Shown: in pieces, positions 27,912-29,378 of the stretch | How positions within the stretch are numbered: position 1 is the stretch's first letter | Layout: every line of letters begins with the position of its first letter | Program-made: the position numbers and the translations under genes | Source of the DNA: Candidatus Peribacter sp. | Lineage (GTDB): Bacteria > Patescibacteriota > Gracilibacteria > Peribacterales > Peribacteraceae | DNA length: 64,000 bases | Reading direction: 5' to 3' | Assembly (NCBI GenBank): GCA_018652955.1 | Contig: JABIBA010000013.1 | Coordinates: 55,880-119,879 of the forward strand | Notes under the pieces: model-generated | The model's input: the letters and a program-made list of their open reading frames with translations, nothing else | What the model was told of the DNA's origin: nothing | Databases searched by the model: none

Positions 27912-29378
<1,467 letters not shown>

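Follow-up and report, generated by a model that had tools for sequence, protein, structure and literature searches.

The 64,000-nucleotide (nt) stretch considered here, hereafter the window, belongs to the genome of a Candidatus Peribacter sp. (assembly GCA_018652955.1, contig JABIBA010000013.1, positions 55,880 to 119,879) and harbors a 16S rRNA gene whose 3′ end carries CUUCC in place of CCUCC, the core of the anti-Shine-Dalgarno (anti-SD) sequence. Sequence comparisons in this genome and its relatives altogether indicated that the ribosome of the Peribacteraceae lineage does not select start codons by pairing between Shine-Dalgarno (SD) sites and the anti-SD, and that the variant tail CACUUCCUUA is real and fixed as a character of the lineage. 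Position 1536, the substituted base of the core, is not free, as it changes together with a base of the 3′ trailer. This comparison suggests that the mutated base is still under selection for intramolecular pairing with the trailer. As a whole, an explanation that combines a fixed tail variant, SD-free starts, leaderless mRNAs, pyrimidine-rich leaders and a hairpin constraint on the former anti-SD is considered highly probable on these sequence data.

The 16S tail and Shine-Dalgarno use

The 16S gene of the window ends in AAGUCGUAACAAGGUAUCCGUAGGAGAACCUGCGGAUGGAACACUUCCUUA (the same end in a shorter rendering being ...GAACCUGCGGAUGGAACACUUCCUUA, with the terminal tail GGAACACUUCCUUA) and is followed by the trailer CCAGGGAAUAAUC, also rendered CCAGGGAAUAAUCUUUGGUAGC. 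Compared with the E. coli tail GAUCACCUCCUUA, exactly two changes were found in 13 nt, U1532A (27922), which lies outside the core, and C1536U (27918), which lies inside it, reproducing exactly the two substitutions that a first-pass annotation of this DNA had read. A third difference from E. coli was located in helix 45, in which GGUUGG is replaced by GGAUGG and the change is compensated within the helix (GUAUCC...GGAUGG). CCUCC is missing from the 13-nt tail past helix 45, the feature that defines the anti-SD-less class of bacteria. The comparison with other rRNA copies that had been suggested ended at this gene, since the whole genome (1.2 Mb, 17 contigs, 99% complete) has no further 16S gene.

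Genes were called by a self-trained hexamer model that kept the longest open reading frame (ORF) per gene, yielding 1055-1061 genes and a coding density of 90-92%; genetic code table 11 fits the genome. It was observed that TGA is a rare stop, closing 51 of 485 long ORFs (TAA, 264; TAG, 170), in a class that also has code-25 lineages.

No trace of SD use emerged from the start regions. Their G content was 9-16% at positions -12 to -1, and the motifs GGAG, GAGG and AGGA showed no peak at any spacing over ~1055 starts, being slightly depleted near them, as GGAA, GAAG and AAGG likewise were. These positional profiles were run on four gene subsets (all genes, operon-internal genes, overlapping genes and genes with a long upstream spacer), with the same outcome in each. 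At spacers 4-12, SD 4-mers of the GGAGG type preceded 6.2% of starts versus 7-11% in control windows, and the genome-wide counts before starts stood at expectation for GGAGG (8 observed versus 7.9 expected) and AGGAG (14 versus 12.6). The mean duplex energy of the region from -20 to -1 was -1.49 kcal/mol with the canonical tail CACCUCCUUA (-1.28 for shuffled sequence) and -1.45 kcal/mol with the genome's own tail (-1.41 for shuffled sequence), upstream coding-sequence controls giving ~-2.9 kcal/mol. Hybridisation against both tails, a check proposed in the first-pass annotation, found start regions no better than shuffled sequence, and the near-absence of SD sites that had been noticed in the window holds genome-wide, with motif fractions at or below controls. 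The same procedure did detect SD use in a class-level relative (G040) that served as positive control, in which AGGAG was observed 18 times versus 2.6 expected and peaked at spacers 6-9. Moreover, a scan of all 5- and 6-mers of the 16S rRNA for complements enriched before starts returned only -10-like and generic C-rich matches.

The alternative that survives best proposes that the anti-SD still serves a small, special set of SD-led genes and that the C-to-U change is tolerated through G-U wobble with GGAGG. All common tail variants are indeed C-to-U transitions, which keep wobble pairing; a faint SD bump is seen at spacers 7-8 in G008, a genome of the same family; and rpsU in Flavobacterium provides an analogy. 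Within the window, an HD-domain gene carries GGAGGUG at functional spacing and is the only called start with a strong canonical 7-nt SD. However, GGAGG and AGGAG occur before starts at the chance level given above, and the Flavobacterium target rpsU, which encodes bS21, is absent from the Peribacter genome, so that a special set of this kind is judged unlikely. The HD-domain gene has a guanine-plus-cytosine (GC) content of 53% versus 44% for the genome and may have been acquired from an SD-using organism. Strong SDs had been ascribed only to compositionally odd genes, namely this one and a 94-amino-acid (aa) ORF; the former attribution stands, whereas the ferredoxin-like 94-aa ORF (19223-19507, minus strand) has no SD at the start called here. 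The remaining strong SD-like strings in the window were all found inside longer ORFs.

Predicted leaderless starts and pyrimidine-rich leaders

Two other signals precede the starts of this genome. The first is a -10 promoter hexamer placed where a leaderless mRNA would be expected to have it. TANNNT presented a sharp peak at spacer 6 (140 occurrences versus a background of ~25), with shoulders at spacers 7-9, and at spacers 5-9 it preceded 35.3% of starts versus 6-12% in control windows, ATG being the start codon in 314 of these 372 cases. Expectation-maximisation (EM) motif searches that took GGAG or GGAA as their seed converged on gTAtAAT starting at -13. The signal recurred in the congener G007 and, more weakly, in G008 and G011. 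Since a -10 box 5-9 nt before ~35% of starts implies leaderless mRNAs, roughly a quarter to a third of the genes appear to be transcribed without a leader. The first-pass annotation had predicted one such promoter, at 25530-25557, which was found with its TATAAT, 6-nt spacer and ATG; on the present counts, leaderless initiation is far commoner than that single case.

The -10 hexamer was also found inside gene runs that look like operons. Among closely spaced same-strand genes (4-45 nt apart), 51 of 208 have a -10 hexamer of their own at leaderless spacing, examples of such runs being 7374-11869 (minus strand) and 14732-18415 (plus strand) of the window. Apparent operons may in this way be arrays of separately promoted leaderless genes.

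Leaderless-rich bacteria such as Actinobacteria and Deinococcus (group C of GeneMarkS-2; reportedly treated by Zheng et al. in 2011) keep a canonical anti-SD and use SD sites on their leadered genes. The Peribacter genome resembles them in the -10 hexamer 6-9 nt before the start in many genes and in the strong preference for ATG, and differs from them in that its leadered genes have pyrimidine-rich leaders with no SD.

These leaders constitute the second signal. Pyrimidine 4-mers (YYCC or CCCY) peaked at spacers 7-11, with 41-60 occurrences versus a background of ~12, and UUCCC was the top 5-mer before starts (42 observed versus 5.7 expected). The enriched k-mers are rich in C and U (UUCCC, CCCCU, UCCCC), G is depleted and A is not enriched, and 16% of starts have no G from -15 to -1 versus 2-4% in controls. 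In overlapping or abutting same-strand genes the peak is kept at spacers 8-12 (10-16 versus ~2), inside the upstream coding sequence. The signal was replicated in G007 and was weaker in G008 and G011. Altogether, the position and composition of these k-mers indicate that most non-leaderless genes have G-poor, C/U-rich leaders, often with YYCC(C) 7-11 nt before the start. In the literature searched, no description of pyrimidine-rich leaders in the candidate phyla radiation (CPR) was found.

The pyrimidine element could be proposed to provide a new docking site through pairing with purine-rich rRNA, for which AGGGAA of a retained trailer and the helix 45 linker GGAUGGAA are the candidates. The element lies at SD-like spacing, the enriched UUCCC is complementary to GGGAA of the trailer, and G008, with a GGGAG trailer, has CUCCC as its top 5-mer (26 observed versus 2.9 expected). 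However, the GC content of G008 is 60%, which by itself favors C over U, G011 breaks the pattern, and among 55 species whose trailer has GGGAG, pooled 8-kb loci showed no enrichment of CUCCC (4 versus 5.0 expected). Since the duplex energies of the element with the trailer were equal to those of shuffled sequence, and pairing with the linker was rejected on the same grounds, no pairing partner was found among the rRNA segments tested, and docking of this kind is considered very unlikely.

Weaker still is the possibility, raised in the first-pass annotation, of a retuned anti-SD by which the ribosome docks via CUUCC on a shifted SD of the GGAAG type. C1536U does make GGAAG a perfect complement, and the change is fixed in the genus, but GGAAG, GAAGG or AGGAA at spacers 4-12 preceded only 1.8% of starts versus 2.7-4.1% in control windows, GGAA-type motifs were depleted close to starts in each of the four gene subsets, start regions hybridised to the native tail at the level of shuffled sequence, the EM search seeded with GGAA ended on the -10 box and G007 gave the same outcome. 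There is no enrichment on which a retuned SD could rest, and such a reading is hardly credible.

The tail variant and its predicted pairing with the trailer

Forty relatives were scanned. A 16S end could be recovered from six genomes of the same genus, and the CACUUCC tail CACUUCCUUACCAGGGAA was present in all of them, so that none of these six sister genomes shows the canonical tail, a comparison that had been recommended as a check on the variant. To cover the family, one genome for each GTDB species was searched with a pattern that left positions 1534-1536 free; 115 contigs matched, nearly all assigned to Candidatus Peribacteria, Peribacteraceae or Peregrinibacteria, a lineage of the CPR. 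Pooling these contigs with the loci of the relatives, a few duplicates included, the tail states were CACU (48), CAUC (40), CAUU (19) and the canonical CACC (15), followed by CGUU (3), CGCC (3), CAAC (1) and CUUU (1). Thus, CACUUCC as found in the window is the commonest state of the family, and canonical CACCUCC is a minority (~15 of ~116 Peribacteraceae ends). It was also observed that the 16S gene of G010 (G010:C45) has extra sequence near its 3′ end, with a second fragment (model positions 1393-1491) ~500 nt past the main match; its row fails to align, and an insertion or intron near the tail may be present.

A maximum-likelihood tree was built from 44 full-length 16S genes of the family, the tail being left out of the alignment. 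On this tree, the tail states require at least nine changes between C and U at 1535 or 1536, four of them at 1536. Lineages that branch early have CACU, and the rows with canonical CACC are nested among CAUC rows. The states cluster by phylogeny, as none of 200 label shuffles needed so few changes.

Directly after the tail, the family-conserved trailer reads CCAGGGA(A/G), in which the base that follows CCAGGGA is designated X1. The anti-SD core can fold onto this trailer in a hairpin of 5 base pairs (bp) (N1536-X1, U-A, C-G, C-G and U-G), hairpin A, whose loop holds the canonical 3′ end and for which RNAfold predicts -3.7 kcal/mol versus -1.1 for shuffled trailers. U1536 occurs in 58 of 116 distinct family-level 16S ends, each time with the compensating trailer base. 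The 1536-X1 pair is U-A in those 58 ends and C-G in 56, with two mismatches and no U-G or C-A intermediate. Among 46 distinct rows (UA 25, CG 19, other 2), the observed covariation was reached by none of 500 shuffles, and sliding the partner position of 1536 removed the signal. Moreover, 1536 and X1 changed jointly on three of three supported independent branches (four with unsupported ones). An extension of hairpin A to 1535 and 1534 was rejected, given that no more than 5 of 116 ends pair 1535 with the next trailer base, X2; the helix ends with the pair at 1536. The first-pass annotation had proposed SD-independent initiation with a drifting anti-SD: the former is borne out by the missing SD peak, and drifting applies only with the qualifier that 1536 changes together with the trailer base.

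These observations practically dispose of the weakest alternative, in which the variant arose by error during assembly or polishing of a metagenome-assembled genome or belongs to a chimeric 16S end. The single-copy state of the gene and the error-prone nature of rRNA ends in assembled genomes could be invoked in its favor, but six of six independently assembled congeners and ~58 species of the family share the base, U1536 is always paired with a compensating A in the trailer and the states are phylogenetically clustered.

Folding of the tail onto the trailer extends beyond the family. Among 23 16S ends compared at class level, 19 have four or more of the five core bases folded onto their own trailer, with lineage-specific compensations such as CCUCU/AGAGG, GCCUU/AGAGGC and UCUCU/AGAGA. 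SD-like AAGGAG or GGGAG right after 16S genes is familiar in other phyla, and the hairpin as such is probably widespread. In the literature searched, no description of an anti-SD/trailer hairpin or of 1536-trailer covariation was found.

A second structure, hairpin B, is confined to the trailer and was predicted both when the tail was folded with its trailer (minimum free energy) and when leader and trailer were cofolded. In 57 of 115 trailers of the family, a UYYYUG partner is located 3-9 nt downstream, versus 10.5 expected from shuffles, in a search whose pattern specified the 5′ arm of the hairpin. Hairpins A and B may alternate, according to these fold predictions. The cofold also predicts a putative leader-trailer helix ~130 nt downstream.

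The features of the window are collected in Table 1. The 16S gene is unlinked: no tRNA, 23S or 5S gene was found within the window, and protein genes lie on either side of it (27700-30166). Unlinked rRNA genes have been described for the CPR, and the lone 16S gene fits this picture. A 70-aa ORF called at 27758-27970 (minus strand), across the 16S 3′ end and trailer, is an ORF-calling artefact and no gene. As for the ATGA or TAATG overlaps that had been listed as joining neighboring genes, seven of nine were recovered (350, 31705, 32955, 45524, 46684, 54128 and 61677), and those at 37576 and 40261 are not in the gene calls.

Table 1. Positions of the 16S gene, its 3′ structures and representative start regions in the window.
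Feature	Position	Strand	Details
16S rRNA gene	27912..29378	-	Rfam RF00177, 1467.6 bits, model positions 1-1533; full-length bacterial small-subunit rRNA
13-nt 3′ tail GAACACUUCCUUA	27912..27924	-	anti-SD core equivalent CUUCC at 27915-27919
Hairpin A (anti-SD core and trailer)	27904..27918	-	U1536-U1540 (27918-27914) with GGGAA (27908-27904), loop UACCA
Hairpin B (trailer only)	27894..27911	-	CCAGGGA (27911-27905) with UCUUUGG (27900-27894)
Leaderless start example, 70-aa ORF	25552..25566	+	TATAAT 25552-25557, 6-nt spacer, ATG 25564
Pyrimidine-rich, G-free leader example UUCCCCCUUACUCUU	20689..20706	+	ATG at 20704 follows
Pyrimidine element in upstream coding sequence UUUCCCUUCUCCU	54112..54130	+	ATG 54128 overlaps upstream stop as ATGA
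HD-domain gene, 224 aa	33977..34651 (with SD to 34662)	-	GGAGGUG, 4 nt, ATG

Tail-binding proteins, probable order of events and meaning

The comparison with the bS1, bS21 and IF3 repertoire that the first-pass annotation had called for gave a clear picture: IF3 is present, bS1 is present with 471 aa and four S1 domains, and bS21 is absent in this genome, in seven of eight genomes of the genus and in most of the family. No Era was found; the best match of the Era model is a 446-aa EngA/Der protein with two GTPase domains and the EngA KH-like domain, and a KH_2 scan of the genome returned only uS3, KhpA-like and PNPase-like or larger proteins. Among the sampled relatives, full-length Era occurs only in G027 (match of 292 bits) and G029. 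None of 16 family genomes has YbeY, which is present in five of nine other families of the class. Published work reported that most CPR phyla lost era (PMC10582724) and that Peregrinibacteria are without bS21 (PMC9297842).

Two proteins encoded outside the window deserve mention beside the pyrimidine-rich leaders. The product of the bS1 gene (C2:50710-52143, minus strand) continues past its four S1 domains with a long stretch rich in Lys and Glu and ends in a C-terminal segment of ~35 aa (KKYYSIDSAGGKKIKEEKRVYFKDEKEAEAAGY) that matched no Pfam family; the leader of the bS1 gene itself is strongly C-rich (ACACCCCCUCCUACUUACUCCCAC). A KhpA-type KH protein of 89 aa (C8:47797-48066, minus strand; Pfam KH_KhpA-B, 67.6 bits) was also found. 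Because KH domains often bind C-rich RNA, KhpA is a candidate reader of the pyrimidine leaders.

Relatives that keep the canonical tail were informative about the order of events. G008 retains CACCUCC and shows a faint SD bump at most; G027, of another family, retains the canonical tail, shows no SD use and has leaders without G before 14% of its starts. As SD use is missing from these relatives despite their canonical tail, its loss appears to be older than the tail mutations. G027 is also the clearest class-level exception to tail-trailer folding and has full-length Era, a single case in which Era is present, the tail is unfolded onto the trailer and SD use is still missing.

From these elements, the following explanation is proposed. 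SD use would have been lost first, and because of this order selection for mRNA pairing at 1535 and 1536 would have been relaxed, giving rise to the C/U switching seen in Peribacteraceae. Era, YbeY and bS21, the three known tail-binding proteins, are absent, and 1536-1540 would stay paired with GGGA(A/G) of the trailer, changes at 1536 being compensated. Hairpin A would act in the precursor rRNA, either in 3′-end maturation without YbeY or in masking the tail. Such a precursor role, to which the covariation points, fits the finding in F. johnsoniae that ablation of the anti-SD impairs 16S processing independently of translation (PMC13000453).

A further and rather unlikely version holds that the anti-SD/trailer hairpin is permanent in the mature 30S subunit, the former anti-SD remaining paired in cis, which would achieve with RNA only what proteins do in Bacteroidia by sequestering the anti-SD. 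Without YbeY and Era, the 16S end would be made by 3′-to-5′ exonuclease trimming that stops at the hairpin. The C/U-rich element at spacers 7-11 would then be a positive signal, with the four-domain bS1 or a KH protein such as KhpA as candidate readers. If true, a permanent hairpin would explain why 1536 must stay paired though it no longer reads mRNA.

Several points weigh against the explanation as proposed here, that is, SD-free initiation with a hairpin-constrained tail. The gene caller is crude and some starts are wrong, which makes the fractions approximate, and the starts with neither signal are rich in TTG and GTG, pointing to miscalled starts. Wobble keeps the pairing with GGAGG, and a few genes, the HD-domain gene for example, may retain residual SD pairing. 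No pairing partner was found for the pyrimidine element, whose putative role as a translation signal is read from its position. Regarding hairpin A, the 1536-X1 covariation comprises only three to four independent switches, with which a sign test cannot reach significance; four of its five pairs were fixed by the search pattern; and hairpin B is more stable, uses the same GGGA and excludes hairpin A. Finally, the leaderless status of the mRNAs, the mature 16S 3′ end and the hairpin in vivo are predictions from sequence.

Bacteria that combine a degenerate 16S tail with the lack of SD sites form a recognised class, in which Peribacter is already catalogued. Ca. Peribacter riflensis, a member of the same family and not necessarily of the same species as the genome studied here, was listed as SD-scarce (7%) and without CCUCC (PMC10783764), and organisms without a perfect anti-SD are generally without SD motifs (PMC6107228). 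The present genome resembles the anti-SD-less bacteria surveyed before in its tail without CCUCC and its missing SD enrichment (PMC6107228; Lim et al. 2012), as well as in having no variant SD that matches the variant tail and in sharing the variant with related genomes (PMC6107228). In contrast, those surveys leave the replacement of the SD, the family-wide C/U switching and the compensating trailer base undescribed.

A second comparison is offered by the SD-blind ribosomes of Bacteroidia, studied in F. johnsoniae (PMC13000453), which share with Peribacter the genome-wide SD-independent initiation, a tail that also carries GGAACAC and an anti-SD role beyond mRNA selection, in 16S processing. 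However, Bacteroidia keep CCUCC, which is sequestered by bS21, bS18 and bS6 and used for rpsU, whereas in Peribacter the core is CUUCC, bS21 is absent and Era and YbeY are also missing. In addition, the leaders of Peribacter are C/U-rich, in contrast to the A-rich, Kozak-like leaders of Bacteroidia.

To this knowledge the present analysis adds that canonical CCUCC is a minority within one CPR family, in which 1535 and 1536 flip repeatedly, that the loss of SD use appears to have preceded the tail mutations and to accompany the loss of Era, YbeY and bS21, and that 1536 covaries with the trailer. In practical terms, gene callers built on an SD model will misplace starts in these genomes, for which leaderless and pyrimidine-leader classes fit better. 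Regarding the biology of the family, the pairing constraint suggests that the anti-SD has another job, in the biogenesis of the rRNA 3′ end or in masking, and a role of the anti-SD beyond mRNA docking was recently raised experimentally in Flavobacterium (PMC13000453).

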